A stretch of 56,386 nt of DNA from Candidatus Bathyarchaeota archaeon (GCA_963811105.1 CAWEPZ010000006.1:1-56386), one strand, 5' to 3'. Positions 4,312-39,060 are shown, numbered from the stretch's first letter. The notes: generated by a model not told the origin, from the sequence alone. Program-made: numbers and translations.

Positions 4312-4538
4312 TTGTACAAGCGCATCTGTAGCCTCCGATTTAATCAGCCTCTTTAATTCTTGCCCTAAAACTTCCAGCTGGCGATCAAAGATGTCTTAAC
4401 TGGTTATAAAATTGCCCGCAAGCTAAAAACTGAGCCGCCAAACATTACTCGTTCTCGGACGGATGCTTAAGGGAAGATTGAGAGGAAAAGAGGAGATATA
4501 GCGTTGTTTGACGATCCAAAACCCTAGGCTCGCATATA

Positions 4539-4575
4539 GGTGTATTAGTGCTAGTATCGCTAATGCAATCTCAAG
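4539..4575 (+). repeat. 37-bp direct repeat, copy 1 (imperfect palindrome)
   Basis: GGTGTATTAGTGCTAGTATCGCTAATGCAATCTCAAG is identical to 24616-24652. Confidence 0.9.
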
Positions 4576-9424: not shown

Positions 9425-9712
9425 TTATGATGTTGATTTTTGCGGTTTGTCGATAACTTTTTGGGTTTCCTCTTCTGAAGGATGTGTGATGGCGTCGACT
9501 GGGCAGATGTCTTCGCAACCTCTACAAAATACAATGCATGAGTTAGGATTTTTTACCACAGTTTTCTTTTTTCCTTCTTTTTCTTCAAAGTCAAATGCGC
9601 CCACGTGGCAATAGTCCACGCACTTTCCACAAGTAATGCATTTTTCATAGTCTATTTTTGGCGCCCATGGTATTTTGTCTCGAGGGATTCCTTCATAAGT
9701 TTCTTCAGCCAT
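9425..9712 (-). CDS. 2x[4Fe-4S] ferredoxin
   Basis: CITCGKCVDYC and CIVFCRGCEDICP; ATG at 9712 follows a GGAGG RBS. Confidence 0.88.
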   Translation of the reverse strand: MAEETYEGIPRDKIPWAPKIDYEKCITCGKCVDYCHVGAFDFEEKEGKKKTVVKNPNSCIVFCRGCEDICPVDAITHPSEEETQKVIDKPQKSTS

Positions 9713-9911
9713 TCTTGTGCCTCCGTGTATTTTATAATGGAAATTCATTATTAATAGCTTTATTTAAATATTGTTATAATTAAAATTAATTTAACAATGG
9801 TAGAAAAGAAGTTGTTTAGTTTTGAAAAACAAAATCTAACGCCAAGAATGGAGGCGTTCCTGAAGCATTCCTTTTCGTTTTTTAGATTTTTGACTTAGCA
9901 ACTTTTAAATA

Positions 9912-10265
9912 TTGTTATTTACACAGAACAAAGACATGTCTCCAAAGTTGGAAAACGATAATCGGTTCAAATCCACAGTTTTCCATGCGCTCTCAGACCC
10001 GATTAGACTGGAAATAGTATCTTATCTGAGGGACGGGGAAAAATGTGTCTGCGAAATAGTTCCTCACTTAGACCTTATACAACCGCTCATTTCACGTCAC
10101 CTAAAAATTCTTAAAAACGCTGGAATTATTAAGTGCCGCAAAGACAGCACTAAACGCATGTACTCAATTGTTGACTGCCAAATATACAATGTTATCGACG
10201 CCTTAACCCCACAATTAGTAACCACTCTGACAGAAGAGGCTATCGAAAACGTAGCTAGCCGATAG
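9912..10265 (+). CDS. ArsR/SmtB-family metalloregulator
   Basis: FHALSDPIRLEI, EKCVCEI and ISRHLKILKNAG. Confidence 0.9.
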   Translation: MLFTQNKDMSPKLENDNRFKSTVFHALSDPIRLEIVSYLRDGEKCVCEIVPHLDLIQPLISRHLKILKNAGIIKCRKDSTKRMYSIVDCQIYNVIDALTPQLVTTLTEEAIENVASR

Positions 10266-10436
10266 ATGGATAAGCGATTGAAACCAGCAAAAGATATGTG
10301 AAGAAAGGACTTTGGGAAAAATATTTGACTTCATGCATAGCTGCTGTAGTGTATTCTTCTTTTAATCTTTGAAGCTAACGGGTAAAAAACATATTTAAAT
10401 ATGTTATTCTTAGAGTTACTTTGAAAAGATTTAGTT

Positions 10437-10817
10437 ATGTCAAAAATCGATAAGAGATTGCAACGGTTGGCGGAATCCGGAACTTGCTCTTGCGAGTCTG
10501 CATCAGAATATACTGATGAACTAAGAGAGTTGGCCGACAAAAACTTAAGTTTGGAAAACAGTGAAGCTAAAAGCAAAGTCTTCAAGGCTCTTTCTGACCC
10601 AATTAGGTTGAGAATTTTAGGTTTGCTTTCATCCCGTGAGATGTGTGTTTGTGAGGTCATGGTTGCTCTTGATTTGACTCAGCCTACTGCTTCTCATCAT
10701 TTGAGGATTCTTGAAAACGTCGCTTTAGTGAAAGATAGAAAAGAAGGAAAGTGGGTTTTCTATAGTATAGCTAAGCCTGACTTTTTTGAAGGCATGCGTA
10801 AACTTGAAATCTACTGA
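10437..10817 (+). CDS. ArsR/SmtB-family metalloregulator with N-terminal CSC
   Basis: FKALSDPIRLRI, EMCVCEV, QPTASHHL and GKWVFY. Confidence 0.9.
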   Translation: MSKIDKRLQRLAESGTCSCESASEYTDELRELADKNLSLENSEAKSKVFKALSDPIRLRILGLLSSREMCVCEVMVALDLTQPTASHHLRILENVALVKDRKEGKWVFYSIAKPDFFEGMRKLEIY

Positions 10818-10893
10818 TTTTTTTTAGAAGAATAATTGCTGGAACTGACTGATTATAACAATAGATTTAAATTCTTAAATATGACATCTGCTT

Positions 10894-11163
10894 TTGGCGA
10901 ATCCAATGAGTAATGAGAAAGTTATCCTGAACGCCTTAAAAACAGACTGCACGGGATGCAGCACATGTGCTGATTTTAAAGCAGACAACCTCACACACGC
11001 AATAGCTAGGTTAAACGGAGTAACAAAAGTTAAAGTTGACGAGATAACCGGTAAGACTACAATAGAATACGATACACAAAAAATCATTCTCTCCAAAATC
11101 ACTGAACGTTTTGAAAAACTCGGCTACAAAGTAGAAATAGTATCAAGAGAGGAAATTCAATGA
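10894..11163 (+). CDS. heavy-metal-associated (HMA) chaperone-like protein
   Basis: CTGCSTC metal motif, LNGVTKVKVD and IEYD...LGY; overlaps the ATPase start. Confidence 0.8.
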   Translation: MANPMSNEKVILNALKTDCTGCSTCADFKADNLTHAIARLNGVTKVKVDEITGKTTIEYDTQKIILSKITERFEKLGYKVEIVSREEIQ

Positions 11164-13085
11164 GAGAACAATTCAAGGGCGTTGTTTTAGTAATTTTACT
11201 TGGGCTCTTCGCTTTAGCAGGTGCCCTAATACCAGGAACTAAAATCGCTTATGCTCATGAAATTGGCATTGCCCTAACTTTAATCGCTGTTGCCTTAGGC
11301 TACCGTATCTATAGGCATGGCATTCGATCCCTGCTTCACAAGAACATTACAGCCCAATTATTCGCAACCATTGCCATCTTTATTTCAGTAATAGCAGGTT
11401 TACTCATTCCTTCAGCATCAGCCACTGGCACAGCAGAAGCAGTTGGTTACCTCACGGCAGCAGCCATAGTAGCTTTCATTATACTTGCCGGAATGACACT
11501 TGAAGACTACATCATTCATAGAACAAGAGGTGCCCTCGAAGCCCTCATAAAGATGAGCCCCAAAACAGCTCGCGTACGTCGCAACGGAGAAGAGGTTCAA
11601 GTGCCCATAGACGAGGTTAAGAAAGGCGAAATCGTCTTGGTCAAACCAGGCGATAACATACCGGTTGACGGAACCGTACTTTCTGGTCACAGCACCGTTA
11701 ACCAAGCAACTATAACGGGAGAATCAATTCCAATAGAAAAGACTGTAGGAGACCGCACATTTGCTGGCACACTCAACGAAAACGGGGCTTTAGAAATTAA
11801 AGTAGAAAAAGTCGCCGAGGACACTACACTTGCGCACCTCATTCAACTAGTCGAAGAAGCTCAAGAGAAAAAAGCACCCATACAGAATATTGCAGACCGA
11901 TTTACCACATACTTCTTGCCAATCATGACGATCGTGTCCTCTTCTGTCTTTGTAGCTAGTTATTTCACGCTTGGTTTTGAAGTTGCACTCGCTAGAACCG
12001 TAACTGTTCTCTTAGTCGCGTGCCCTTGTGCACTTTCAATAGCTGTTCCAGTCGCTGTAGCCGCTACAATTGGTAATGCTAGCATGAACGCCATAATAAT
12101 CAAGGGCGGCACCCACATTGAAAAGCTAAAGGACGTTACTCTTGTCGCATTTGACAAAACTGGCACACTAACCATCGGCGAACCCAGGGTTGTCGAAATC
12201 AAAACCTTCGGTAATTATTCTGAAGCGGACACAATCAAGTATGCAGCGATTGCTGAGAAATTCTCCGAACACCCTCTATCTAAAGCCATCATCGCGAAGG
12301 CAATTGAGATGAACTTGAAGATTCCTGACCCTACAGACTTTAAAACTATTCCAGGGCAAGGCGTGGACGCCCACTTTGGAAATAAACATATCCTGATTGG
12401 AAGAAAGTTGGTAGAAACGATGTTTTCAGAAGAAGCCAATCAATTGATGAGTCGGGTTGAAAGCGAGGGAAAAACAGCTATTCCTGTGGCAGTAGACAAA
12501 AATGTTATCGGTATAGTCGTTGCGGCTGACACAGTCAGGACGAATTCTTTGGAAGCTATTCAGAGGCTTAAGCGTTTAGGAATCAAAACTGCTATGTTAA
12601 CTGGAGACAATATGCTGACTGCCAAATCTATCGCTGAACAGATCGGAGTTGATGAGTATCATGCAGAGCTTTTACCTGAACAGAAAGTTGCTTATGTTGG
12701 AGAACTGAAAAAGGGAAACGTTGTCGCGATGGTTGGCGACGGTGTGAATGATGCTCCTGCATTGGCTAATTCGGATGTTGGGTTTGCGATGGGTGCAGCT
12801 GGCAGTGACGTAGCTATTGAAACTGCTGACGTAGCTCTGCTTGGAGACGACTTGACAAAGGTTGAATACGCCATTAGCCTAAGTCGAAAGGCATTTAACA
12901 GAATGAAGGGAAACATCGTTTACGCGTTTATCTGGAACATTGTCGCTTTGAGCTTAGCCGCTTTCGGCATCTTAAATCCTGTCTTAGCTGTTGTTCTTGC
13001 TGAAGCAGGATGTATTTCAGTGGTAATCAATTCTGCATTACTGTTGCTGAGTAAGCCAAAGCCACTAGCAAAGATTAAGGGATAA
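11160..13085 (+). CDS. P1B-type heavy-metal translocating ATPase
   Basis: TGES, CPC, DKTGTLT, SEHPL and GDGVNDAPAL. Confidence 0.92.
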   Translation: MREQFKGVVLVILLGLFALAGALIPGTKIAYAHEIGIALTLIAVALGYRIYRHGIRSLLHKNITAQLFATIAIFISVIAGLLIPSASATGTAEAVGYLTAAAIVAFIILAGMTLEDYIIHRTRGALEALIKMSPKTARVRRNGEEVQVPIDEVKKGEIVLVKPGDNIPVDGTVLSGHSTVNQATITGESIPIEKTVGDRTFAGTLNENGALEIKVEKVAEDTTLAHLIQLVEEAQEKKAPIQNIADRFTTYFLPIMTIVSSSVFVASYFTLGFEVALARTVTVLLVACPCALSIAVPVAVAATIGNASMNAIIIKGGTHIEKLKDVTLVAFDKTGTLTIGEPRVVEIKTFGNYSEADTIKYAAIAEKFSEHPLSKAIIAKAIEMNLKIPDPTDFKTIPGQGVDAHFGNKHILIGRKLVETMFSEEANQLMSRVESEGKTAIPVAVDKNVIGIVVAADTVRTNSLEAIQRLKRLGIKTAMLTGDNMLTAKSIAEQIGVDEYHAELLPEQKVAYVGELKKGNVVAMVGDGVNDAPALANSDVGFAMGAAGSDVAIETADVALLGDDLTKVEYAISLSRKAFNRMKGNIVYAFIWNIVALSLAAFGILNPVLAVVLAEAGCISVVINSALLLLSKPKPLAKIKG

Positions 13086-13106
13086 GTAACTTGTGAAGGT
13101 ATTTGT

Positions 13107-13873
13107 ATGAAGAATAAAGATGTGAAAAAGTCTGTTAGAAAAGCATATTCAAAAGTAGCGACCAATAGCAATTCTAGCTGCTGCTCCTGCGGTTGCGGAA
13201 GCGCCGATCAACAAACAATCAAGAAAATATCTAAAAAAGTAGGCTATTCAGAAGAGGAAATAAACGCTGTTCCAGAAGCAAATCTCGGATTAGGTTGTGG
13301 AAACCCAACAGCCTTTGGTAACATCAAAGAAGGCGACGTTGTCCTTGACTTTGGAAGTGGTGCTGGATTTGACTGCTTCTTAGCTTCAAAAAAAGCAGGT
13401 AAAACCGGAAAAATCATTGGAATTGACATGACGGAAGAGATGATAGCTAAGGCCAGAATCATTGCTAAAGATAATGGTTACTCAAACGTTGAATTTAGAC
13501 TTGGCGATATTGAGAAAATTCCAGTAGATGACAACTCAGTCAACGTTGTAATTAGCAATTGCGTGATAAACCTTGCACCAGACAAGTGGATAAAGCAAAA
13601 GTCTTCAAAGAATCCTACCGTGTCCTCAAAAGTGGAGGCAAAATGTACGTTTCCGACATTGTTCTCCTCGGGAAACTAACTGAAGAGCAGCTGAAAAACG
13701 AAGATCTGCTTACAGGTTGCGTTGCAGGCGCCTTACACAAAGATGAGTACTTAGCCAAGCTCAAGCAAGCAGGCTTTAGCGTTGACGTTATTTCAGAAGA
13801 CAAGGAAATAAGCAAGACGCAATACAACGAATTGCCTATTGAGAGCATAAAGATTGAGGCAACGAAGCCTTAA
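13107..13873 (+). pseudogene. arsM: arsenite methyltransferase, frameshifted near 13585
   Basis: [25 protein letters not shown] and [12 protein letters not shown], then [20 protein letters not shown] in another frame. Confidence 0.88.
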
Positions 13874-14115
13874 CTTTCTATTATTTTAAATGAAGTGCTT
13901 ATTGGCACTGCTTTTTTCAGCATTGTTCTACAGACAGTAGTTATTCTCGGCATCAGCAATTGCATTTTTCACAACAGCTTCGCTTACATTTTTGTCCTTA
14001 ATTATGTACTGACGTGTATGCCTGTGAAAGTTCTGGGCGGTTCCTCTTTTCTTTGACCATCAATTTCTACTGAATAATCCGATATTTTTTGTCCCTGCTC
14101 TTTAAGTAAATAATC
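13870..14115 (-). pseudogene. OsmC/YhfA-family C-terminal relic
   Basis: Reverse strand reads EQGQKISDYSVEIDGQRKEEPPRTFTGIHV/YIIKDKNVSEAVVKNAIADAENNYC/SV.TMLKKAVPISTSFKII, with frameshifts; N-terminus absent. Confidence 0.65.
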
Positions 14116-14204
14116 GAAAAGCATACAAATCAGAAACGATTAAAGTTGAAACTGTTCAAGCACCATTAACCTTTTTTACTATAGAGCGGTTTTCTTTAAG
14201 CTTC

Positions 14205-16308
14205 ATGGATGTGGATGCGTTAACAAACTTTGACGTTAGACAATGCCATAAATGGGCGCAACTGCTACTTACCAGACACCAAAAGCTAAAGCAATCCCAA
14301 GACGCCATAGAAAAACAAGACTTTGATTCCGCAAAACGGCTGTTCAATCAAATCTTCACAGGAACAACGGTCGGCAAACAAGCTGACCCAGGCATGGCTG
14401 GCTCACTCTTGTACCACATGGCAATGGTAACAAAGATGGAGTCTGAAACCCGCGTAATTCTCGACGAACTAAACGCAGAGATGCCCGACATATCAGCACA
14501 TTTAAACGAGATTTATGGCGATTTCGAATCTGACGCTAAAGAATTAGCCAAAGAAATAGGTCCGCTGCAGCTGGCTTTCAAAGATATCCCTCAAAGTCCA
14601 CGGTTGGGAACAGAAGCAAAAATAGCCCTCTTTACCAAGTTAAAGCAGGAAAACAAGAAAGTCGAAACCCTACTAAACAACCTTAATCCCCAAGCAGACC
14701 AAGCATTCGCAGAATTGTTCGGTGAATGGGCAGAACAGGTTATACGGATACGGCTCAATACAAGAGTACGAAACAATCAAAGGCTTACTCGTAACAGCGG
14801 CACTCGCAAAGACTGTTGGTATACCAACGCTTGAGAATGCAATGGCTCGAGTGCAGGATAAGTTCGGTCAGAGATACAGTTAACATTGCACTAGAAGTGA
14901 CACTTGAAGGTAGGCATGCGAAGAGAAAAACTACAATCAATCATGCTAAGCGATCACTTCATCAACTACACCATGGACATAGAAAAGCTGGATGGGCATA
15001 TGGAGTTTTTGAACTGCCCGATCTTTGGAGGCCACAAGTACGCAGCTGAAAAATACGGTGTGGATGATAAGGTTTCAGCTCTGTTTTGTAGGCATTTCTG
15101 TTTTGCTCACGCCAAAGCCATGCTAGATACGGTTCTGCCCTTTCGTTTACGTTGTGGCATCCTAAACTAATGGCCTCTGATGGCAACTGCGAATTCTATC
15201 TCAAACTAGCATATTCACCAGAAGCCCAAACATCTGAACGGTTTGTTCCACTAGTAATGTATTGGAACGTTACTCGCGAATGCAACATGAAATGCAGCTA
15301 TTGCTACATTAACGCAACAGAAAAAAAGCTTGATAATGAATTGACCACTGAAGAAGCAAAAAAGCTCATGGATCAAATATGCCAGGTTAGCAAGCCATTG
15401 CTTATCCTTAGCGGTGGTGAACCTCTGCTGCGACCAGATATTTTTGAGCTGATTGAGTATGGCTCGTCTAAAGGTTTGAAGATGGGTCTAGGAAGTAACG
15501 GCAGCCTCATCGACGATGATGTCGCGGTAAAAACTTAAAGACGGCGGGTATATCAACGGTTTCAATCAGTTTAGACTCAAATATTGCAGCGCAGCACGAC
15601 GAGTTCAGGGGCGTAGTTGGTGCATGGGAAAAAGCAGTCAACGCATGCATAGCTCTGAGAAATAGCAATGTGCTCGTACAAGTAAACACTACCTTAACTC
15701 AGCAAAACTACAACCAAATAGACGATATCATGTCACTGGCTGAGGGCATAGGTGTAGAAAACTTTCATCTTTTCTTCCTTGTTCCAACAGGTAGCGGAAC
15801 TAAACTAACTGATATTTCACCACAAAAATACGAAGACATGATTACTAACACATTCGCAAAAGTTGCAAAACAAAGTTGAACGTAAGACTATCTTGCGCGC
15901 CACAGTTCATGCGAATCGCTAAAGGCATGGGCTTAGACATGAGACAGTGGATTCGTGGCTGCATGGCAGGATTATACTATTGCAGCATTTACCCAAACGG
16001 AGACGTAACACCATGCCCCTATCTGCCAATAAAACTTGGGAACATTAGAGAAAAAAGCTTTAAAGAAATCTGGTTAAACTCACCAATATTCAAAGCTCTA
16101 CGGGACCCGAACTCTTTGAAGGGCAAATGTGGCGCATGCGAATACCGCACTTTATGTGGGGGTTGCAGAGCACGCGCTTATGGACTTTCAAGCGACTTCA
16201 TCGACTTACTGCGGTGACCTTCATGAACCAATAGAGATAAGAAGAGATTATTTAACAGAAGACCCCTGGTGTGTCTATCAACCAAAAACACGATTAAGTA
16301 ATAGATGA
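14205..16308 (+). pseudogene. radical SAM/SPASM protein (AhbC/D, PqqE-like) fused to an N-terminal helical and Cys-bearing domain; many frameshifts
   Basis: WNVTRECNMKCSYCY, LSGGEPLLRPD, GCMAG..YCSIYPNGDVTPCP, GKCGACEY..CGGCRARAY and EDPWC; fragments abut through about eight 1-nt shifts. Confidence 0.8.
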
Positions 16309-22844: not shown

Positions 22845-23083
22845 GCTTTCTCCGATTTACGGTTAGGTTGTTAAAGGAATAAAAGCCTATTCGTCAAGAT
22901 TTCTTGATTTTACAACTGGTTCGGTTTGGTCAATGTTTCTCCTATATAAGGAAACGAGCCTAAAGACCTAACCAGACAGGCCTCTAACCATACTTCACCT
23001 CATCCACACTTAAATTTCCTCCACAAATGTGTTTCAGACAACATTCTCTTATCAGCGAACAAAGTCGCCTACACCATTGAGTT

Positions 23084-23404
23084 TCAATTAAGGAAGCGGG
23101 AATTCTGGCAGATGGCCCATAAGACATCGCCGTGGATCTTAGCGACGAAACCCATCCACTGCACCGCAAACATAAACAGGATATCCGGTGTAACACATGG
23201 ATTAAATTTAAGACGGTAACCGCTCTCAAAGACACATCTTTTGATTAATACGCAGCTTGTTCCCGCCATAACCCAGCCGCCCAGGATCTTGCCCTCAACA
23301 GCGTTTAGCGGTAAATACCAAACAGTCATGTTTTCATCTAAAAAACCAAGAATTAATCCTTAGCCGTTATGTCGACGCACAAACCCACAAGCGCCATCAA
23401 CATT
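23084..23404 (-). pseudogene. C-terminal half of the glycosyltransferase-like relic
   Basis: NVDGACGFVRRHNG*GLILGF...AGTSCVLIKRCVFE...TPDILF...GFVAKIHGDVL/GHLPEFPL, a GT2-like GxxCxLIKR..D..H pattern. Confidence 0.6.
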
Positions 23405-23651
23405 TGATTGTGACTATTTTAGCAGTTGCTTCTATAACATCATTAATTGTTGGCGGAAGCGTTGGTCTGAAAATTTGTAGAAGGAATCGAAGAGCTCTGA
23501 AGTAAGCCAGTAAATCTTTTTCCACGCGGCAAATGCGTGGTTACTGTTCCGCATTAGAACGCCGTCAAGCGATAGTGAGCAAACAACGGATAATAAACAT
23601 TAACCAAAAAATTATTTAAAGCGAGAAAACAAATCTATATTTGAATGTTGT

Positions 23652-24299: not shown

Positions 24300-24615
24300 G
24301 TGGCTTTATCAAATCGTTTCTTGTCATTGACTATCGAATCTTTTCGTTAGTCAAGACAGGATGTAAAGTGATTTTCTGGATGGACCTCCGATAAGCCAGT
24401 ATGTCCCATTTGGAAATTCGTCAAGCAGTCTTGTTGCAAGTCTACCTTTTAACTAACATTTTCTCTAAACCTAAAATCAATGATACAATTATTTTTGCGA
24501 ACAACATAACGCTGGTTATTTCTTCTGTAATATTAGTAGTTATGCTTAGAAAGAAAAAAGAACAAGAATAGACCAACCAGGCGCTAAGACCTCTAAATCA
24601 TAATTCAGTTTTATT

Positions 24616-24652
24616 GGTGTATTAGTGCTAGTATCGCTAATGCAATCTCAAG
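24616..24652 (+). repeat. 37-bp direct repeat, copy 2
   Basis: Identical to 4539-4575. Confidence 0.9.
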
Positions 24653-24714
24653 AGTTAAAGGCAATTAGGACCACATATTGGTGGTGTACTCATTCTATTA
24701 CTAGGTTGACTGTC

Positions 24715-25173
24715 GTGAGTAAGCAAGACTTTAAGCTCTTGGAGGACGTTAAGCCAGGGGACCTTATTTCTGTTGATTGGTGTGATGCATCTACTGGAAA
24801 AAGCAGTATGAACGGCGGAGCTGTAGATGTTCCGGTGCAAAGCTGGGGCATCTTTCTTGGAGTAATAGCAGGCCGTGTTCAACACATCATTTTAGCGCAG
24901 AATAGTTTCTCATTTACGGAAACCGTGTTTGACCTAGATTATACTTCTATTCCGGTGGGGTGGACAGTCGGAGTTAAAGTTCTAGTTCGCGCAAGCGTAA
25001 ACAGGGAAATTGCTGACTGCATGATTCACAGCTTCGCCAAGAGCAGTTCAGGACAGTCTCGCTCAAGCATTGTCTCATCTAATCTTCTAAACCCACGGGC
25101 TCCCAGGATATTCATGTACCATCGCATGCAAAGAGTGAGGATGAGGATGAGGATGCCTTGGCAGAAAATCTAA
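24715..25173 (+). CDS. hypothetical protein, first gene of the terminase module
   Basis: Probable GTG start (VSKQDF); PGDLISVDWCDASTGKS...SWGIFLG. Confidence 0.65.
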   Translation: MSKQDFKLLEDVKPGDLISVDWCDASTGKSSMNGGAVDVPVQSWGIFLGVIAGRVQHIILAQNSFSFTETVFDLDYTSIPVGWTVGVKVLVRASVNREIADCMIHSFAKSSSGQSRSSIVSSNLLNPRAPRIFMYHRMQRVRMRMRMPWQKI

Positions 25174-25409
25174 TCAAACGTGCCCTCACTCGACATCGAC
25201 AAGTCCGCGGCCGCCCAACACCGGAAGTTGAATTACCAGACGAACGCCTAGTTCTAGGTGTAGAATTTGCGATTGCAATGGCCATTTGCCTATCAATCCT
25301 CGAGGTTGCCCACATGGCTATATTGGGCAGCTGGAACAGCGAAATCTTCGCAACCATCTCAGGCCTAGTCGGAATCATAATCGGCTTATTTGTGGGGAAA
25401 AAACATTGA
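25158..25409 (+). CDS. small two-TM membrane protein
   Basis: GAGG RBS, basic N-terminus and two TM helices. Confidence 0.7.
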   Translation: MAENLIKRALTRHRQVRGRPTPEVELPDERLVLGVEFAIAMAICLSILEVAHMAILGSWNSEIFATISGLVGIIIGLFVGKKH

Positions 25410-25512
25410 ATGCTAAAATAGTTTCTCAGAAAACCTGGAACACCTGGAACAGCTGGAACAGAATTATAAGCGGAGCAATAGATCGAGTCTGCAGCAGGAC
25501 AGGAAGACCTTA

Positions 25513-25968
25513 ATGGCGAAGGGCAAGCCTTGGACCGTTGAAGAGGAAAGGCAGCTTCGAGAGCTCGTAACAGAAAAAAAGTCCATGCGGTCCATTGCAA
25601 AGCTTATGAGTAAAACCCTTATGGCTGTACGGTTGAAAGCAGCTCGCTTAGGCTTAGAAGAAGATAATGAGAGGCAAAAAAAAACCACGCCATTATCTTC
25701 TACCCTTGAGAAGTTAGTTTTGCCCGATGAGTTGCCTTCAATTGAAGAAAAACTCAAGACCTTAGTTGGCGCCTTGGAGCAACTTGAAAAGGGCAAATTG
25801 GATAAACTTGGTGTTTTACGTTTACGCACAATCATTATGGGCGTAAAAGTGTACCAGGAGCTCATAGCAGAATACGTCGATTATCGAGGCCTTGAGACTG
25901 AAATGCTGGAATGGAGGGACAAGTATGCGGACCTTGCAAAAAACACCACGAACCCTCCGGCCAAATAA
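25513..25968 (+). CDS. HTH protein, putative terminase small subunit
   Basis: KPWTVEEERQLREL..SMRSIAKLM HTH plus helical C-terminus, overlapping the TerL start. Confidence 0.6.
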   Translation: MAKGKPWTVEEERQLRELVTEKKSMRSIAKLMSKTLMAVRLKAARLGLEEDNERQKKTTPLSSTLEKLVLPDELPSIEEKLKTLVGALEQLEKGKLDKLGVLRLRTIIMGVKVYQELIAEYVDYRGLETEMLEWRDKYADLAKNTTNPPAK

Positions 25969-27374
25969 ATTCAGTGATAACCGAGCTAAGACACGCGGGA
26001 ATATTGGTTCTTTACAGGCGAATAGACTCAGCAAGGTTGAGACGCTAAAGACGGATCCGCTTGAGTTTTTCCGTCAAATCCTAGGAGTGGAGCCGACAGA
26101 TTACGAGAAGGAGCTTATCGAGCTTTTCCAAAAGAACCAGTTTGTAGCCGCCCGGTGGAGCCGACAATCAGGCAAAAGCTTCACAACCTCTGGAATTCTA
26201 CTCAATTACGCCCTAGTGAATCCCAATTCCTACATTGGTGTAGTTGGTCCTAGTTGGCGCCAAACAAAACTTGTCATTCGACGCATTGGGGATTTTGCGA
26301 GGCGGCTGCCGCCTGGCTCCAAAATTACTGTGCAGAAAACAAAGATATCTTGCCCTAATGGCAGTATCATTGAGGCTTTCCCCAACAATCCCGATACCAT
26401 CCGAGGGCCTACCTTGCACGTGGTCTATGCTGACGAATTCAATTTCATACCTAACGCCGAAGACCTCTATGATGCTGCTCTCTTTCACTTTGGGAACTAC
26501 TAACGGGAAATTTATCTGCACAAGCACTCCATGGAACACGGATAGCCTTTTTTGGCGGATCTGCAATAAATCTGACTTTGATGATTTCGCCAGGCATCAT
26601 GTAACTTGGGAGCGAGCCCAAGAACCGAACGGACCGTTGAAGCTGGGGATTTTGGAGAAGATTCGCAAGCAGCTGCGCGATGATCCTGCCCGGTGGCGCC
26701 GCGAAATGGAGGCGGAGTGGGCAGAGGATGAAGACGTCTGGCTATCCCAAAACCTCATCGCCGCCTGTGTCGGCACAGTAAAAAACTGCAAGGAAGACCT
26801 GCAGGAGTTTGACATTAACGGTATAGCGGAGGGGGAATTCTACGCTGGCCTGGATCCTGCCCAAACAAGAGACTACCACGTCCTGAGTGTAATTGAACGA
26901 AGGGATGAGCAGCTGCTGCTTAGGCATCTGAAGATTTTTCCACATCCAACCTATGACGCCTATGTCCTTGGCTACCTCAAAACGCTGCAGGACCGCTGGG
27001 GTGGATTCCGACAAATCAGAGTTGATGTTACTCGAGAAGGACCCAGCTTCATAGCAGACATGGAGAACGCCGGCATAAACAATGCTGAAGGCGTAATCTT
27101 CAGCTCGCCCAGGAAAAGTGAGATGGCAGCCCTGCTCAAGAAGCGAATGCAGGACAAACGTTTCTTTTATCCGCTGCTAAGCTGGGATCGGCCGTACCAT
27201 GGGGACATCTGCAATGAATTTAATCTGGAACGCTTTGCCCTGAGAAAGGACGGCGGATTAGCCTTTAGCCATCCGCAGGGAACCCATGATGACGTCTTTT
27301 GGGCTACAGCCCTAGCCGTTTACGCTACAGTAAAAATGACGGTGTTTGACATGGAGGCATTGCACTTTGGTTAG
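25925..27374 (+). CDS. terL: terminase large subunit (one 1-nt frameshift near 26485)
   Basis: Walker A RWSRQSGKS, DTIRG, Walker B VYADEF, coupling motif TSTP, nuclease GLDPA and HDDVFWATAL. Confidence 0.85.
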
Positions 27375-27398
27375 CCCTATGGTTAGCCCTATGGTTAG
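27368..27398 (+). repeat. 12-bp tandem repeat at the terL / MuF-like junction
   Basis: TGGTTAGCCCTA twice, plus TGGTTAG. Confidence 0.8.
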
Positions 27399-27696
27399 TT
27401 TCTTCACAAGCTACGATTATTGGGAAGTGCACCTGGTCAATAACGAGAGAGGTCCTTGTGGAAAGTGCCAATACTACGCTCAAGTGGGCGTTTTAAATGG
27501 TGAGTGGTTGCAGGGCATGTTCCCTTGGCTAAAGATCATTAATGATAACGAGATCAAATGCAACATTCACCCAAACTGTCAGTGTTATCTGAAGCGAGTT
27601 CTCTTGCCATATGATAAGCCAACTGTTGCCGATCCCGAGGCTGTTGTAACTGAAAGTAAGCAGCTGCTTGCAGATTACAATTTAGGAGGGTACTAG
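27379..27696 (+). CDS. small protein with a MuF/SPP1-gp7-like Cys-His motif
   Basis: CGKC ... IHPNCQC, resembling the HPNCRC signature of MuF. Confidence 0.55.
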   Translation: MVSPMVSFFTSYDYWEVHLVNNERGPCGKCQYYAQVGVLNGEWLQGMFPWLKIINDNEIKCNIHPNCQCYLKRVLLPYDKPTVADPEAVVTESKQLLADYNLGGY

Positions 27697-27698
27697 GC

Positions 27699-29146
27699 AT
27701 GAACAACCGGGAAGATGTGCTGAAGATCCGTAAGCTCAGACGGATCTACGATCGCAGTAAGGACAGATTTACTTTTCACGTCGAGTACGAAACTATCACG
27801 GAGATTACGCCAAGGACCCTGGTTGTTGCTGAAGCCTTTGGTCTAGGGATTGATGAGGCTCAAAAGTTTCTTGTCCTAAACACTATTTTGCAGATTAGCC
27901 CTAGAGATATTGTGTTAGTTACGGGTGATAGTGGCAGCGGCAAGAGTGTTTTGCTGCGAGCACTCCGAGAGGATCTTGGCTCTGAAGCTGTAGACATGGC
28001 CGACGTCCAAGTGGACGAAAACAAGCCGTTAATTGATACTATCGGCGCCACAGTTGAAGAGGCCTTGGAGCTCCTGAGCAAAGTCGGATTGAATGATGCT
28101 TTCCTATTCCTGCGGCCGTATAAGCAGCTGAGCGACGGCCAAAAATACCGATATCGAGTTGCCAAACTCATTGAAACCGGAGCTCAATGGTGGCTCATGG
28201 ACGAGTTCTGCGCTCTTCTGGATCGGGACACGGCGAAGATTATTGCGTTTAACGTCCAGAAATTGGCGCGGCAGCAGGGAAAAGCTGTCATCGTTGCAAC
28301 TACCCACGCAGACCTCTTTGAGGATCTGGCGCCATCCGTAAGCATTCACAAGCGGTTTGGGGAAGAAATTCAAATCGACTATTACCCAAATATCGCCAAA
28401 GCAGTATGCACCCTGATTAGAGAGATGAAAGTTGAGGAGGGCACTAGGGAGGATTGGATAAAACTTTGCCGTTTCCATTACCGAGGCCACGGATTTCTCA
28501 GTTGCAAGAAAATTCTTCCGCGTAACCCGAAACGGTGAGCTCTGCGGCGTCATTATTTACTCTTACCCGCCACCGGCATGCTACGGAAGAAGGATGGTTC
28601 TGCCCAAAAATGTCAATGCAGGAAATAAACCAGCAACTAAGCACAATCAACCGCGTGGTCATTCACCCAAAATATCGAACCATAGGCTTAGGAGCCAAGT
28701 TAATTCGGGAGAGTCTGCCGCTTGCCGGCACGCCGTATGTGGAGCTAATCGCAGTGATGGCAAAATATAATCCGTTCGCAGAAAAGGCAGGCATGCAAAA
28801 AATCACTCAACAAACCTACGTTGAGAGCGTTTCCAGAGTTTCTAAGGCCCTGCAGAATTTAGGCTTCACCTTGCAGCTCCTAGGCAGCAGCCACTACGTC
28901 GAATCAAAGCTTAAAACGCTAAATAGCCAAGAAATAAGTTGCCTCAAAGAAGCATTTGGCAAGAATAGCCATCCGAGATTCAAAAAAGTCTTCTCCGGGA
29001 AAGGTCAGCCGTATGGGAAAGGATCTGCCTATCTTCAGCATCTGCAGGATGCGGACCTCACAAAAATGGCGAAGCTGATAAAGATCGCTAGTATGCTCCT
29101 GCAGACGAAGGTCTACTTATTTTGGAAGAAAAATTGCCTAACCTGA
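27699..29146 (+). CDS. ABC-type ATPase fused to a GNAT acetyltransferase (two 1-nt frameshifts near 28495 and 28610)
   Basis: GDSGSGKS, LSDGQ, MDEF and ATTH; then RFHYRGH..GELCGVIIYSYPP and RVVIHPKYRTIGLGAKL (GNAT motif A), and YNPFAEKAGM. Confidence 0.8.
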
Positions 29147-29997
29147 AATATCGCTTGAGTAAAGCAACGTGAATTAAAAGTGTTAGTATGCGTATGTTAT
29201 GGAGAAAAGGCCTGCTGATACTATTACTGAAGCCCGAAACCTGGACCGGGTGAGAATGGAGCATGTGGTACTTGGATAGCCATAGGCTTTGGTAAAAAAG
29301 ACATCAACGGCTTCTATGAAAACCCTATCACCCTTTCCAACCTCAGGGCTTCAAGAGCTGCGAGCTTGAAGAAAGAAACCATCTGAATGGAATCGAAATG
29401 CTTTATAAAAGATGACCTGAATATTCAGGGCAAGACTGAGATAATCGGTGGGTTTGTTGAAGTTTTTGCTGTTTTTTCTATGTAGTTTTTGATTTCTTGC
29501 AGTATGTTGGGGGCGTAGGTTGGGAGGCTGGATTTTGACTTTTTGGTTTTGGAACTGCGAGGTTAGGAGTGCGTTTTTTATTTGGGCGTTTTCGAAGTTT
29601 TTTAGGGAGTAGTCTAGGCGTTTTTCTTTAAGTTTGCCGGGGGATGTTCGACTATTATTAGGCGGTGGCTGGTTAATCATCCGGAGCCATTGGCAAGCTG
29701 GAAGGTAAGAAATATTGGTTCTCAAGGGTAGAAGAAAACTTCCAGAGTTCCTTTGTGGCTGGTGCTATTTTGATTTTTCCTCTTTCAGATTCTTAGCAAC
29801 CTGCACAATTAACTCGTCAAGTATAGTCGCGCGCTAACTTTTAACATATAATAGGGTTATTGAAGAAATAAAGCAATCTTGTGCCTGTTCTATCACAATC
29901 ACATCACTTTTTATTCGAAGCTATTCACAGTTAGCTTGCTTAGCATATGCTAATAATGTAGAGCAACTTGAAAATTTTTATGAGGAGGTGAAAAATA

Positions 29998-31164
29998 ATG
30001 GAAGATATTGATGATATTGCTGTTGCAGCTGGAGGCTTCAAAACATTTATGGCGGCGGTAAAAGCTGCAGGATTAGTTGAAACACTAAAAGGTCCAGGTC
30101 CATTCACAATTTTTGCGCCAGATGATCGTGCTTTTTCATTGCTTCCTGCAGGTTCAGTGGATGAACTATTGAAGGATGTTCCAAAGCTTAAGGCGATTCT
30201 GATGTACCATGTTGTTCCTGGAAAGTTTACTGTTGACGAAATAGGCCAAATGAAGACAGCTAAAACTGTCCAAGGGCAGGAAATTCAGATTGATGGAAGC
30301 AAATGGCATTTTCATATAAACCCGGTAATTAATAATGACGCACACATAGTAAATACAGACGTTGTAATAGACAATGGTATAGTCCATGTTGTGGACAGAG
30401 TGCTTATGCCAAATATGGATCTTACATGTCCGATGGATGGCATGGGCTTCATGACCAAACAAGCTATGGATGATCACACTAAGAACGCCCACGTAGTTGA
30501 GAAAACCCCCGAAGCACCGATGCCTGCTGAAGTTGTGCCGGTGGTTGAGAGGGCTCCAGAACCAACGCCAATCGTAGAAGAACCAGTAGTAGAGAAGACA
30601 TCGGAACCAATGCCAGTCACTGATGCACTGCCAGTAGTTGAAAAAGCACCAGAGCCAATGCCAAGCACTGAGGTCATGCCGGTAGTTGAGGCGGCGCCTG
30701 AACCGTTGCCACCTACTGAAGTTATAACGGAACAGATGCCAGTAGCAGCGAAAGTGACAGGAGTTTTTGAGGTTTTCTGTGACGCTGTTTATAGGTTCCG
30801 TTTCCATCTGAAAGCTACAAATGGACAGATAATTGCTGTAAGCCAATCGTACGGGACAAAAGAGGCCGCTCTAAAAGGCATTGCTTCAATACAAAAGAAT
30901 GCTCCAATAGCTACGATCGCTGATTCCACAACTAAAGAGACTATACCGGATTCTGCGCACCGAGGAATTGTACAAGATCCAGATTTCGAAATTCAATGTG
31001 ATTCTGCTGGTAAGTTCCGTTTCCATCTGAAAGCTGCTAATGGGGAGATAATTGCTGCAAGCCAGTCCTATCTGTCAAGAGAGTCAGCCGAAAAAGGTAT
31101 AGCGTCGATAAAGAAGAATGCTCCAATGGCAAAGATCATTGATCAAACCACTGCGTTAACATAA
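29998..31164 (+). CDS. fasciclin domain + Pro/Glu/Val-rich repeats + two DUF1508 (YegP-like) domains
   Basis: GPFTIFAPDDRAF, ILMYHVVPG and NGIVHVVDRVL; VVEK.PEPMP repeats; two FRFHLKA.NG.IIA.SQSY..K..A.KGIASI.KNAP units. Confidence 0.85.
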   Translation: MEDIDDIAVAAGGFKTFMAAVKAAGLVETLKGPGPFTIFAPDDRAFSLLPAGSVDELLKDVPKLKAILMYHVVPGKFTVDEIGQMKTAKTVQGQEIQIDGSKWHFHINPVINNDAHIVNTDVVIDNGIVHVVDRVLMPNMDLTCPMDGMGFMTKQAMDDHTKNAHVVEKTPEAPMPAEVVPVVERAPEPTPIVEEPVVEKTSEPMPVTDALPVVEKAPEPMPSTEVMPVVEAAPEPLPPTEVITEQMPVAAKVTGVFEVFCDAVYRFRFHLKATNGQIIAVSQSYGTKEAALKGIASIQKNAPIATIADSTTKETIPDSAHRGIVQDPDFEIQCDSAGKFRFHLKAANGEIIAASQSYLSRESAEKGIASIKKNAPMAKIIDQTTALT

Positions 31165-35946: not shown

Positions 35947-36354
35947 TTAGATCTCTGGGAGGTTCCAGCCTTCTTTTCTTTTTCTTGTTATTATTTCTTG
36001 TATGGCGGGTACTGTTAATGCGAAGTTTATGTGTTCACAAGTGTTGCTTTTGTCGATATCACAGAATATTCCTTGGGGTTTGATGTAAATTTCTGCTATC
36101 ATGCCGATTTTTCGATCGGTTATTCTTACACCAGTATCGTTAATGTTGAAGTGCTCATACTGCGGGAGTATTTTTATCTTGTTTATTTCTTCCATTCTGA
36201 TTCTGGCTGCTTCGTGAATGAAGTCTGAAATGCTCTTGTATTGCGGGTTGTTGTCGATAAATACTTCTATTTGTTTGATTAATTCTTTTTTTAAGCTGAC
36301 TCCTTTGTAGTCTGAGTCTTTTTTTGGTAAGTTAATCCCCTTTGTTTGCTTCAA
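35947..36354 (-). CDS. ribbon-helix-helix regulator with C-terminal C..C.H domain
   Basis: YKGVSLKKELIKQIE...YKSISDFIHEAAR; FCDID...CEHINF. Confidence 0.8.
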   Translation of the reverse strand: MKQTKGINLPKKDSDYKGVSLKKELIKQIEVFIDNNPQYKSISDFIHEAARIRMEEINKIKILPQYEHFNINDTGVRITDRKIGMIAEIYIKPQGIFCDIDKSNTCEHINFALTVPAIQEIITRKRKEGWNLPEI

Positions 36355-37204: not shown

Positions 37205-38644
37205 GTGGTTGAAGGGGAGCGAACAGGCGACCTTGCCAACATTACGTCTCTTAGCATGTTTGGCAATAAGCCGGGAAACAATATCACTGGCAAGTCGGTT
37301 GCAGTTCTACCCGCCGGCACCGCCTCGCAAATCCCCAACTGCCGCCAAAGACCTATCTGCCCCAAATGCGGCGAGAAAAAAGTTTGGCGTGATAGCCATC
37401 GAACAAACTTATTTGGTCCAACTATTCAACGATGGCTTTGCAGTTCCTGCTTTTTTAGATTCAGCGATCCAGTGGACCTGGCGGAGAGCAAAAAAGCCCA
37501 AAAAGAAGCTGAAAAAATGGAATCGATGGGCTTAAAAAGCGCAGAGCCTATACAATTTAATTGCCAAATATGCGTCCAGGAGACGAAAAATTTGACTTCG
37601 GACTCTAAAACAGTAGATCCGAAATTTGTCGACTTTACGATTGGAACTAAGCTACAAAAACCCGCAGATATCAACGCCGTAGATATCAAAACCCTCAGAG
37701 GTGCAGTCGTTAACTTCCTATTTTACCTGCAGCAACAAGAAAGAGCAGAAACAACACGAGAACAGTACGGTTGGAACCTAGACTTCTTAGTTACCCACGG
37801 AGCAAATCTCTTTGATCCCCTAAGCGTTAAAGATGTCTTAGTTAACAAGCTCAAAGACGAGATAACTCAGAAAGACAAAACAAACGTAAGAAAATACACT
37901 CTTCTTAAAGCCTACAGAGCATTTGCAACTGCCTACGAAATCGACATTACACCAGCTAAAATTCCCAAATATAAACCAAATAGAAAAATTCCCTATCTTC
38001 CGCCTGAACCACACATGGATCAACTAATAGCTGCCTGCAGTTACGAGATGGCCGCTTTTCTCCAAACACTCAAAGAAACAGCAGCACGCCCAGTTGAAGC
38101 AATGAGAATACTCTGGAAAGAAATCGACTTTATACAAGCACACATCCCCATCAACCATCCTGCAAAAGGCTGTAACGCTCGAGTACTAAGGATGTCTGAA
38201 AAACTCATTAACATGCTAAAAAATCTGCCACACATCACAGAAAAAGTCTTCATCTACAAAAACGAGAGAGCTGCCGGGAAAGCCTTTCGAGTCATGCGAC
38301 AACACGCGATCATAAAAACGGGCATAAAAGAACTTCGAAAAATCAGCTTCTACACATTCAGATATTGGCGAGCGACCGTTGAATTCCAAGAAACCCAAAA
38401 AGAAGTACCAACAATGATCCTTCTAGGCCACAAAAGCACCCATTACCTCTGGCTCTACGTTCAACTTTCACACATTTACTTCAGCGGAACCCCAAAATAC
38501 AGTAGCATCTGGGTTACTGATCGCGAACAAGAAACCAAACTCAGCGACGAAGGCTACACATTCATAAGAACAGATCCAAAAGACGGAGCAAGCCTCTACC
38601 GAAAAACGCTTCATTGCGGAGCTCAACTGATTGGACACGATTAA
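37205..38644 (+). CDS. tyrosine recombinase/integrase with N-terminal Zn ribbon
   Basis: CPKC..CSSC; ETAARPVE (R), PAKG (K), YTFRYWRAT (YxxR), LLGHKS and LYVQL (Y); adjacent to a tRNA. Confidence 0.85.
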   Translation: MVEGERTGDLANITSLSMFGNKPGNNITGKSVAVLPAGTASQIPNCRQRPICPKCGEKKVWRDSHRTNLFGPTIQRWLCSSCFFRFSDPVDLAESKKAQKEAEKMESMGLKSAEPIQFNCQICVQETKNLTSDSKTVDPKFVDFTIGTKLQKPADINAVDIKTLRGAVVNFLFYLQQQERAETTREQYGWNLDFLVTHGANLFDPLSVKDVLVNKLKDEITQKDKTNVRKYTLLKAYRAFATAYEIDITPAKIPKYKPNRKIPYLPPEPHMDQLIAACSYEMAAFLQTLKETAARPVEAMRILWKEIDFIQAHIPINHPAKGCNARVLRMSEKLINMLKNLPHITEKVFIYKNERAAGKAFRVMRQHAIIKTGIKELRKISFYTFRYWRATVEFQETQKEVPTMILLGHKSTHYLWLYVQLSHIYFSGTPKYSSIWVTDREQETKLSDEGYTFIRTDPKDGASLYRKTLHCGAQLIGHD

Positions 38645-38665
38645 CATGACCGAAAAGCAGAAAAG

Positions 38666-38734
38666 TATCGCCACAAACTATCGCCACAGCAAAGTTGGCT
38701 TAAGCAATCTGAAGGCGAATTCAACATCGCCACA
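38666..38734 (+). repeat. three ATCGCCACA direct repeats (candidate integrase arm sites)
   Basis: Copies at 38667-38675, 38680-38688 and 38726-38734. Confidence 0.6.
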
Positions 38735-38763
38735 GGTGCTAGTCCAACCAAAATCATGGAAAA

Positions 38764-38837
38764 GCGGCCATAGTCTAGCTTGGTTAGGACATCAGGTTCC
38801 CAACCTGACAACCCGGGTTCAAATCCCGGTGACCGCA
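38764..38837 (+). tRNA. tRNA-Gly(CCC)
   Basis: Cloverleaf with acceptor GCGGCCA/TGACCGC (one C:A mismatch), anticodon arm TCAGG-TTCCCAA-CCTGA and T arm CCGGG-TTCAAAT-CCCGG; CCA not encoded. Confidence 0.93.
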
Positions 38838-39060
38838 CTGAATAATCAATGAAACTTAGCTCAATGGGTTTCAAGCTTGCCAGTTTTCGTCTTAGGCGGA
38901 ACTCGTCTCCTATGCCAACTATGATTTGCGCAGTATTGAGCTTAAGACATCCCATTTTCAAATAATTAGTAAATGAGTTGCAAGCAATAAACAGAGAGAG
39001 AATATGATAAGAGTTTTATAGTCGAGCTTATCCTATTTTCAAGGACGGCTTTAACTCAAG

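Follow-up and report, generated by a model that had tools for sequence, protein, structure and literature searches.

A capsid-less terminase cassette in a Candidatus Bathyarchaeota genome, probably a decayed remnant of a BATPV1-like tailed provirus

What does a set of genes for viral DNA packaging represent when it stands in an archaeal chromosome without any recognizable gene for a portal or a capsid? The question is raised by a 56,386-nucleotide stretch of DNA from Candidatus Bathyarchaeota archaeon (GCA_963811105.1, CAWEPZ010000006.1:1-56386), hereafter the window, which makes up all of contig C6 in a genome of 3.49 Mb and 15 contigs. Around a gene for the large terminase subunit (TerL), the window holds a cassette that a preliminary description, made from the sequence alone, had taken for a distinct family of integrative elements pairing a DNA-cutting motor with a modifying enzyme, and either borrowing the capsid of a helper virus or using its terminase for something else. 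The analysis reported here points to a plainer answer. The cassette is probably a decayed, capsid-less copy of the terminal packaging cassette of a provirus resembling BATPV1 (Bathyarchaeia tailed provirus 1), stranded in the chromosome and inactivated as assembled, and the locus is most likely a degenerate new example of a kind of provirus already published, not a new kind of element. For the window the result is thus mostly deflationary, the "headless terminase" being the stranded and apparently broken tail end of a published family of tailed Bathyarchaeia proviruses.

The cassette and its reading frames

The cassette occupies positions 24609-29185 on the plus strand, the stretch common to the window and to a second near-full copy on contig C7, with which it shares 93% identity over 4585 nt; homology between the two copies stops at 29185, and a GC-richer island coincides with the cassette (GC fraction 0.48 at 25-29 kb vs ~0.41 in the flanks). 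A 37-bp motif (24616-24652) marks the left end. Open reading frames (ORFs) at 24625-25173, 25158-25409, 25513-25968, 25892-27374, 27346-27696 and 27699-29146 encode, in order, a protein of family c3, a putative protein with two transmembrane segments, a Myb/GcrA-type helix-turn-helix (HTH) protein of family c1, a Mu gp28-type TerL, a small Cys protein, and an ABC/GNAT protein of family c2. All six genes are co-oriented, as had been described, but two of them are broken, TerL by one insertion and the ABC/GNAT gene by two. The reported lack of portal and capsid genes was borne out, in that hidden Markov models (HMMs) for 10 structural-gene families found no match anywhere on contig C6. Across the genome, PF05065 matched contig C15 only and PF04860 matched contig C12 only, the latter below its cut-off, while PF06074 matched nothing, being blank in all 14 control genomes as well. 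No integrase was found within 24609-29185 by Pfam or PHROGs, the nearest lying 8 kb off without a linking repeat; neither terminal inverted repeats nor target duplications were seen at the cassette ends, and a search with both flanks in 30 relatives found the flanking genes nowhere adjacent or colinear, and hence no empty site.

Both domains of a large terminase were matched in the central gene. TerL was recovered with phrog_2 (E 3.1e-18), its ATPase domain with PF03237 (E 2.9e-10, 40.6 bits against a cut-off of 22 bits) and its nuclease domain with phrog_5909 (E 7.7e-18), PF17289 scoring 20.3 bits, just below its cut-off of 22.6; the family HMM matched the C-terminal part at E 5.2e-173, and the Walker A/B (RQSGKS, DE), TSTP, GLD and HDD columns are all conserved in the alignment to relatives. 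The ATPase and nuclease motifs ascribed to TerL are therefore present, but they are split over two frames. The N-terminal ATPase part (25925-26485) and the C-terminal part, which comprises the end of the ATPase domain and an RNase H-like nuclease (26481-27374), lie in ORFs of different frames (25892-26503 and 26244-27374) that can be joined only by skipping one base near 26483-26485, where an extra T in a run of Ts causes the first frame to stop at 26503. When aligned with twelve relatives of 465-493 aa, the first ORF matches as far as "DLYDAALF" and the second from "FTLGTTNGK", placing the change of frame between "DAALF" and "TLGTTNGK". A typical relative encodes TerL in one frame of ~482 aa, which the window does not, and a single uninterrupted match of at least 440 profile positions was found in 78 of 80 related loci, the two exceptions being one cut by a contig end (L009) and one fusion (L076). 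Because these 78 relatives read through in one frame, programmed frameshifting was ruled out as an explanation of the TerL break.

The ABC/GNAT gene (27699-29146) is a single ORF of 477-488 aa, about 480, in relatives, whereas in the window it is read in three frames (27699-28538, ~28534-28600 and 28601-29146), with insertions of 1 nt near 28493-28497 and in an A run at 28606-28610. With three such insertions in the two genes, the copy as assembled would make neither enzyme, and the proposed pairing of a DNA-cutting motor with a modifying enzyme fails here in both members. Errors at a general rate of one indel per kb are unlikely: outside the cassette the window contains 12 ORFs of 403-907 aa, and ORFs cover as much of it (0.76/0.61/0.49) as they do of contig C11, 1.5 Mb in length (0.77/0.63/0.50). 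Metagenome contigs from four runs, derived from relatives 90-95% alike, lack all three extra bases; as even the best metagenome DNA runs share at most 0.23 of sampled words with the window, these contigs show relatives and cannot tell whether the indels of the window are real. Among the runs listed as sharing sequence with the window there was no RNA run.

Proviruses and other loci related to the cassette

Relatives were abundant. The C-terminal TerL ORF recruited 1311 of 3998 candidate proteins at E<=1e-3, with a typical length of 482 aa and an identity of 60-85%, and the ABC part recruited 2239 of 5196 candidates, typically of ~480 aa. Several pairs of TerL and ABC relatives are on contigs of equal length, and one pair had adjacent locus tags. 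Gene neighborhoods were analyzed in the best 80 of 223 TerL-relative loci on species-representative contigs (one genome per species) and in the best 80 of 174 TerL-relative stretches in IMG/VR, a sample biased towards loci already called viral. For the 80 species-representative loci, which are nearly all from Bathyarchaeia, often several per genome, with one from a Methanocella metagenome-assembled genome (MAG), ORFs were called and clustered, family HMMs were built, and all loci were annotated in six frames. Loci with family structural genes upstream of TerL were assigned to class I, those with the cassette only to class II, and those with c1 and TerL only to class III. These classes held 24, 14 and 42 of the 80 species-representative loci and 69, 9 and 2 of the 80 IMG/VR loci, respectively. 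At least 6 of the 10 structural families were found in 11 class I loci; an upstream flank of at least 8 kb was available in 7 of the 14 class II loci, and at least 8 kb on both sides in 22 of the 42 class III loci. The gene c2 follows TerL in 21 of 24 class I and 12 of 14 class II loci, and in 0 of 42 class III loci.

In class I the genes form one colinear plus-strand block that ends in c3, c15, c1, TerL and c2. The order in complete relatives is scaffold-like, cement, HK97 capsid, portal-like, c14, c0a, c12, tube, c9, neck, c10, tail and then the cassette. Capsid (c23; PF05065 E 1e-6, phrog_267 E 2.6e-14), tail tube (c8; PF18906 E 5.6e-14) and neck (c5; PF04883 and phrog_5 E 4.2e-17) were identified by profile matches, c4 is a tail protein of the YQBQ-like kind, and upstream of the capsid gene lie one for a cement protein (PF09956) and another of 263 aa; c14, c0a, c12, c9 and c10 received no assignment. 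The portal-like protein c13 has no Pfam or significant PDB match by profile search; its likeness is to clusters of portal proteins in the ESM Atlas (Portal_Mu, score 0.97), and the portal call follows from this likeness alone, because the AlphaFold2 (AF2) model from a 6-sequence alignment was unusable (predicted local distance difference test, pLDDT, 38.9). The c0a and c12 profiles found nothing significant in PDB, c0a having weak matches to (alpha/alpha)-barrel enzymes (E 0.014-0.06). Four complete elements from three genomes share nucleotide homology from the 263-aa gene to the c2 stop, over ~14.2 kb. Upstream of this, at a distance of 3-8 kb and beyond a stretch of cellular-type genes, stands a separate left block that encodes a winged-helix protein and holds small genes; the right flanks carry a type I restriction-modification system or cellular genes, and no integrase or replication gene was seen in the four elements. 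This unusual conserved order of capsid, portal, tail, terminase and ABC/GNAT genes is now fixed for the family, and helps to annotate the 223 species-representative and 174 IMG/VR loci. A rearranged form occurs at 8876-11353 of L076, the Methanocella locus, and in L150 of IMG/VR, where one 825-aa ORF runs in frame from c0a into TerL and the intervening genes, c12 to c1, have been deleted.

In such complete relatives, to judge from the protein families, the terminase pair would cut the DNA of the element and pump it into the element's own capsids, and in the window the head-tail block upstream would have been lost by deletion or by recombination at the c3 promoter or motif region. The preliminary description had itself held that portal and capsid genes beside TerL in most homologous loci would make the cassette simply a deleted provirus. 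For the clade of the window this is largely what was found, because complete relatives have genes for capsid, portal-like and tail proteins immediately ahead of the cassette.

Phylogenetic analysis of TerL (a quick IQ-TREE run with 79 rows) placed the window among such elements. One of two clades comprises 34 rows, of which 33 are class III and monophyletic (support 98); the other comprises 45 rows, including 21 of class I, 13 of class II and 9 of class III, with class II scattered among complete elements (10 changes for 13 rows). The C-terminal TerL part of the window has the C7 copy as its sister (99), and both fall inside a clade of 10 rows (100) together with L001, L005, L006 and L007 (class I), L002, L003 and L008 (class II) and L004 (class III). 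Of the 10 structural families, 5 are present at L001 and 8 at L006, while L005 and L007, whose upstream flanks are short (1.8 and 4.8 kb), are in class I by virtue of the tail gene c4 alone. The window TerL thus belongs to a mixed clade holding elements with family structural genes upstream, and the idea of a distinct element family was not upheld.

The closest published counterpart is BATPV1 (JAAKEZ010000002_pro), a provirus of 33,358 bp that is predicted to be temperate and is reported to carry a pPIWI gene (PMC11705971). The class I locus L032 lies on contig JAAKEZ010000002.1, the BATPV1 contig, and encodes, at 13053-15278 and directly after c2, an Argonaute of 741 aa whose PIWI region matches VbAgo at E 4e-22; since contig name and pPIWI gene both agree, it is very probably part of BATPV1. 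It has the same TerL family, preceded by capsid, portal-like, tube, neck and tail genes and then c3, c15 and c1, and followed by c2 and the Argonaute. The window shares the TerL clade but has only the last 4.6 kb, without an HK97 capsid or portal gene at the terL locus, in another chromosomal context and with three frameshifts. A complete Bathy-6 MAG is also reported to carry a provirus of 46.8 kb that has terminase, integrase and structural genes and is called common in Bathyarchaeia (PMC11697101). The head module of phage Mu (gp28, the gp29 portal and gp30 MuF) offers a more distant likeness, as TerL relatives are named "phage FluMu gp28-like protein" by JGI and c13 of complete relatives resembles Portal_Mu clusters; however, the order is permuted here, with the terminase after the tail genes and followed by ABC/GNAT instead of a portal, and the MuF / SPP1 gp7 model PF04233 matched nothing in the genome, though it matches in 5 control genomes. 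In the accessible parts of the literature searched, no mention was found of the ABC/GNAT gene at the operon end or of a stand-alone TerS/TerL clade (TerS being the small terminase subunit); "acetyltransferase" does not occur in the main texts of 10.1101/2023.08.24.554615, PMC11705971 and PMC13573593, nor "ABC" in those of the first two, and supplementary gene tables may annotate c2 or the cassette.

Copies, relics and the case for a possible functional unit

The genome that contains the window holds two near-full copies of the cassette, both frameshifted, and at least 20 truncated relics, and the window copy would be one decaying relic among these. A TerL search of the genome returned 11 matches, namely the two pieces in the window, the C7 copy, and fragments on C2, C3, C10 and C11, some of which contain stops. 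The C7 copy is frameshifted in c1, in TerL (near residue 440) and in c2. By tblastn, blastn and HMM scans, ~30 pieces of c1 and several c3-c15-c1 triads were found, along with a probable third copy split between the starts of C3 and C14. Of structural genes there remain, on C15, the sole family capsid gene of the genome with a split c13 and a neck gene and, on C12, a portal-like ORF and a neck gene; family HMMs for c0a, c12, c8, c9, c10, c4 and c14, i.e., 7 of the 10 structural families, found no match in the genome. Split or truncated TerL copies were also common in a sample of the genus. These genomes are thus littered with relics of the element, which break long-read assemblies. Beside the C7 copy, a large repeat-rich gene (C7 3583-6488, minus strand) is broken up into four or more successive ORFs, and long-ORF coverage on C7 is the lowest of all contigs (0.60/0.36/0.32), reflecting either a locally poor assembly or heavy decay.

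The 37-bp motif noted upstream of the genes in the preliminary description is indeed there, and recurs. Sixteen sites were found in the genome, eight before c3 cassettes and the others mostly before remnants of a neck-gene module; most precede truncated pieces, and outside the genome a single weak match was found in 80 related loci. It could be a promoter/operator or a recombination site. A second copy in the window (4535-4575; 41 of 41 bases aligned, 97.6% identity) is followed by a 20-codon ORF, like the neck-remnant copies. A mini-derivative is also present in four or five copies, in which c1, after its first ~72 codons, runs straight into the final 50 nt of c2 and the DNA beyond (window position 25732 joined to 29097, or to 29508 in the C9 copy); these lie at C11 ~617480-618035, 334702-335065, 642605-642810 and 573578-573901 and at C9 105979-106325 and are 81-87% alike, which indicates a deletion form that has multiplied. 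Another repeat family is represented at 23000-23405 of the window, with at least nine copies of 74-92% identity on C1, C2, C3, C4, C9 and C10, often near cassette relics.

Several observations weigh against reading the window cassette as no more than a stranded fragment. The window copy and seven other copies or relics in the genome all begin at the position equivalent to 24609, a few bases before the 37-bp motif, and random deletions would not give identical ends. Elsewhere, cassette-only copies at four sites in three genomes (L002 8363-13196, L003 8362-13157, L008 8359-13206 and L009 8349-11182) share both ends in unrelated flanks; they are 79-84% identical in nucleotide sequence over ~4.8 kb, from a T-rich left end ~280 bp before c3 to the c2 stop, without inverted or direct terminal repeats seen at the ends. 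In a genus sample of 40 other species, 30 had the TerL family and 14 the family capsid gene. TerL is under purifying selection generally (ratio of nonsynonymous to synonymous substitution rates, dN/dS, 0.018-0.162 by Nei-Gojobori in 22 pairs, dS being saturated in four further pairs), and strongly so between window and C7, for which dN/dS is 0.03 and 0.09 at dS 0.33 and 0.24; therefore, either function was lost very recently or the frameshifts arose as errors during assembly or polishing of a repeated sequence. Consensus errors confined to a repeated sequence may indeed be involved, and P0017, an orthologue of 98% identity in a different assembly, keeps its frame at 26483 and is shifted near residue 426. 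Lastly, the cassette-only L002, L003 and L008 form a clade (99) with dN/dS of 0.035-0.063 at dS above 1, a sequence signature that would fit long-term function without capsid genes.

Taken together, these observations raise the possibility that c3-TerS-TerL-x-ABC/GNAT (4.6-4.8 kb) is a functional, separable, capsid-less unit kept by selection, in which TerS would recognize a site in or near the cassette and TerL would package DNA into the capsids of a related complete virus, in the manner of a satellite or of lateral transduction, the frameshifts in the window being assembly errors or very recent losses. A terminase cassette without portal or capsid is indeed present, as had been described, and it recurs as a bounded unit, with eight same-start copies or relics here and four same-ended copies elsewhere. 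It is preceded by a motif of its own; at seven cassette-only loci, upstream flanks of 8 kb or more are free of structural genes, and complete elements in related genomes could act as helpers. Even so, we consider a selected unit of this kind unlikely. The copy in the window has three frameshifts and the C7 copy more, the ends carry no integrase, replication gene, terminal inverted repeat or target duplication, and the right end is merely the c2 stop codon, as expected of an operon and not of a cis-acting end. Moreover, cassette-only loci are scattered through the tree of complete elements, and the single family capsid gene of the genome lies beside a split portal-like gene. PICI-type islands with their own terS and capsid-forming PICIs (phage-inducible chromosomal islands) are phage satellites that carry packaging genes. 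The cassette resembles them in being a partial set of virion or packaging genes in a chromosome without the full virion set, but it differs in lacking integrase, att sites, replication genes and helper-interference genes, in carrying terL in addition to a terS candidate, and in being phylogenetically interleaved with complete elements. Decay of a provirus remains the better account of the window.

Outside the window, the question becomes why isolated cassettes and bare TerS/TerL pairs stay intact under strong purifying selection where no family capsid gene is found. The 33 monophyletic class III loci are bare pairs of a TerS-like gene and TerL among cellular genes, with PriS, GINS51, glycosyltransferase, exosortase, inositol-1-phosphate synthase, oxidoreductases and others as neighbors. 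In four species (L047, L059, L062 and L063) the pair (c1 ~9607-10080, TerL ~10010-11449) occupies the same position, behind genes for a glycosyltransferase, PriS, GINS51 and an exosortase, and TerL of these syntenic orthologues has a dN/dS of 0.045-0.074. Terminase modules of Bathyarchaeia may accordingly persist without capsids as functional units, of which the fixed-end cassettes and the bare pairs would be two forms, kept by selection either as minimal satellites that move themselves and neighboring host DNA in the capsids of other viruses or in a DNA-packaging or anti-viral function domesticated by the host, with the window copy recently disabled or mis-assembled. Such persistence is tentatively proposed and judged improbable; if functional, the modules would amount to a minimal packaging-hijacker or a domesticated terminase, neither of which was found described in the accessible parts of the literature searched.

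A dispersed, co-regulated packaging system, similar to a gene transfer agent (GTA) or domesticated, in which head, neck and terminase loci share the 37-bp motif and are used together by the host, is a good deal less probable still. The 16 motif sites before terminase cassettes and neck-type modules would suit it, as would the major capsid, portal-like and neck genes on C15, the portal-like ORF and neck gene on C12, and the selection and synteny of the stand-alone clade in four species. As in RcGTA, the ~14 kb block shared by complete relatives contains no integrase or replication gene, and TerL is under strong purifying selection. However, these elements are multi-copy, at variable sites and often decayed, and no complete, intact head-tail set exists in the window genome, which lacks tube, c0a, c12, c9, c10, c4 and c14 genes of the family and in which both near-full TerL copies and the portal-like gene on C15 are split; the motif, for its part, stands mostly before truncated pieces and is not conserved in the loci of other genomes.

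Flanking sequence and remaining genes of the cassette

Downstream of the cassette, a PolB-like ORF of 403 aa (PF00136 3.4e-7, PF03104 1.6e-6) and a tyrosine integrase of 479 aa (PF00589 5.1e-8) adjoining tRNA-Gly(CCC) (38764-38838) confirm the PolB relic and the integrase-tRNA pair of the preliminary description, whereas the ORF called a ribbon-helix-helix (RHH) switch (35947-36354, 135 aa) has no Pfam match at E<=0.001. That these genes are the replication and switch genes of one larger integrative element running from the 37-bp site to the tRNA (24.6-38.8 kb) is the least probable of the readings considered: an integrase does adjoin the tRNA, homologues of 35947-36354 lie 3-7 kb downstream of c2 in L007 and L056, and an integrase of the same family (33% identity) lies beside tRNA-Leu at 15015-16491 in L026, ~3.5 kb after a truncated c2, but no direct repeat ties the tRNA-Gly to the left end at 24.6 kb, the GC island and the homology to C7 both end at 29185, the intervening genes (fasciclin/DUF1508 and an 829-aa PQQ-type propeller) belong to families seen as ordinary neighbors elsewhere, the integrase family is missing from 79 of 80 related loci, and no tRNA lies within the retrieved flanks of 41 of 43 related loci scanned. 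The integrase-tRNA pair (37205-38838) probably represents an integrative element of its own, or what is left of one.

Within the cassette, homology of c3 (24715-25173 within the ORF listed from 24625; family HMM E 1.1e-55) to its relatives begins at 24715; in complete relatives c3 follows the tail gene c4, and it has no Pfam or PHROG match. The 83-aa protein after it (25158-25409; family c15/c28, family HMM E 8.3e-33) has two hydrophobic stretches and is putatively a two-TM protein. The gene c1 (25513-25968) is intact; it immediately precedes TerL at 79 of 80 related loci and overlaps the TerL ORF in the window. Its N-terminal HTH matches the DNA-binding domain of GcrA in PDB (E 1.4e-4), and an AF2 model (pLDDT 82.3) has a three-helix N-terminal domain, a linker and a long C-terminal helical hairpin; no terminase-small match was found in Pfam or PHROGs, and a Foldseek search with the model gave no match at E<=0.001 in PDB or BFVD. 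The position and the modeled architecture make c1 a likely small terminase, so that the TerS-like reading of the HTH gene keeps its place before TerL and its HTH plus helical region, but no described TerS family or structure matches it.

Between terL and c2 the gene content varies among relatives, some of which have a winged-helix gene there. The 116-aa Cys-rich ORF of the window (27346-27696, translated with an HPNCQC motif) is kept in the C7 copy, is a singleton among the 80 related loci, and has no Pfam match even at E<=10; its HPNCxC motif bears some likeness to MuF, a kinship that the PF04233 search does not support. Cluster c21, in the same slot in L002, L003, L008 and L057, was considered as its counterpart and rejected, being a winged-helix protein.

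The ABC domain of c2 is well matched (PF00005 E 4.4e-10, phrog_293 E 1.2e-33), and its closest PDB relatives are generic ABC proteins, the best being the ABC-F protein 6ha8_V (E 1.8e-8). Matches to the GNAT-like region are weak (PF13673 16.5 bits against a cut-off of 23.6, phrog_11841 E 2.5e-4, and the PDB N-acetyltransferase 3fb3 at E 0.021 with a 19-sequence profile), and JGI names relatives "ABC-type ATPase with predicted acetyltransferase domain." The ABC-GNAT fusion had been read correctly as to its ABC domain, but two skips of 1 nt are needed to read it through and its GNAT part is faint. In Mom of phage Mu and in TmcA, a GNAT-like acyltransferase that acts on nucleic acid works together with an NTPase or accessory function. 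The analogy to c2, which lies at the far end of a Mu-like morphogenesis block, is functional only, as c2 has generic ABC and weak GNAT matches and no sequence link to either; by this analogy we would guess at an ATP-driven acyl transfer to nucleic acid, a virion protein or a host protein.

An Rfam scan of the window returned the tRNA as its sole match, and a scan for bacterial-type promoters and terminators, which leaves archaeal promoters uncovered, showed no enrichment. Just outside the cassette, the ORF at 29998-31164 encodes a fasciclin domain fused to two DUF1508 repeats, with 172 nt duplicated internally (30762-30933 and 30981-31152), and its product is an ordinary-looking secreted protein. 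Farther downstream, two minus-strand ORFs of 811 and 711 aa (45541-47976 and 47873-50008) overlap by ~100 nt and could be one frameshifted gene or two paralogues.

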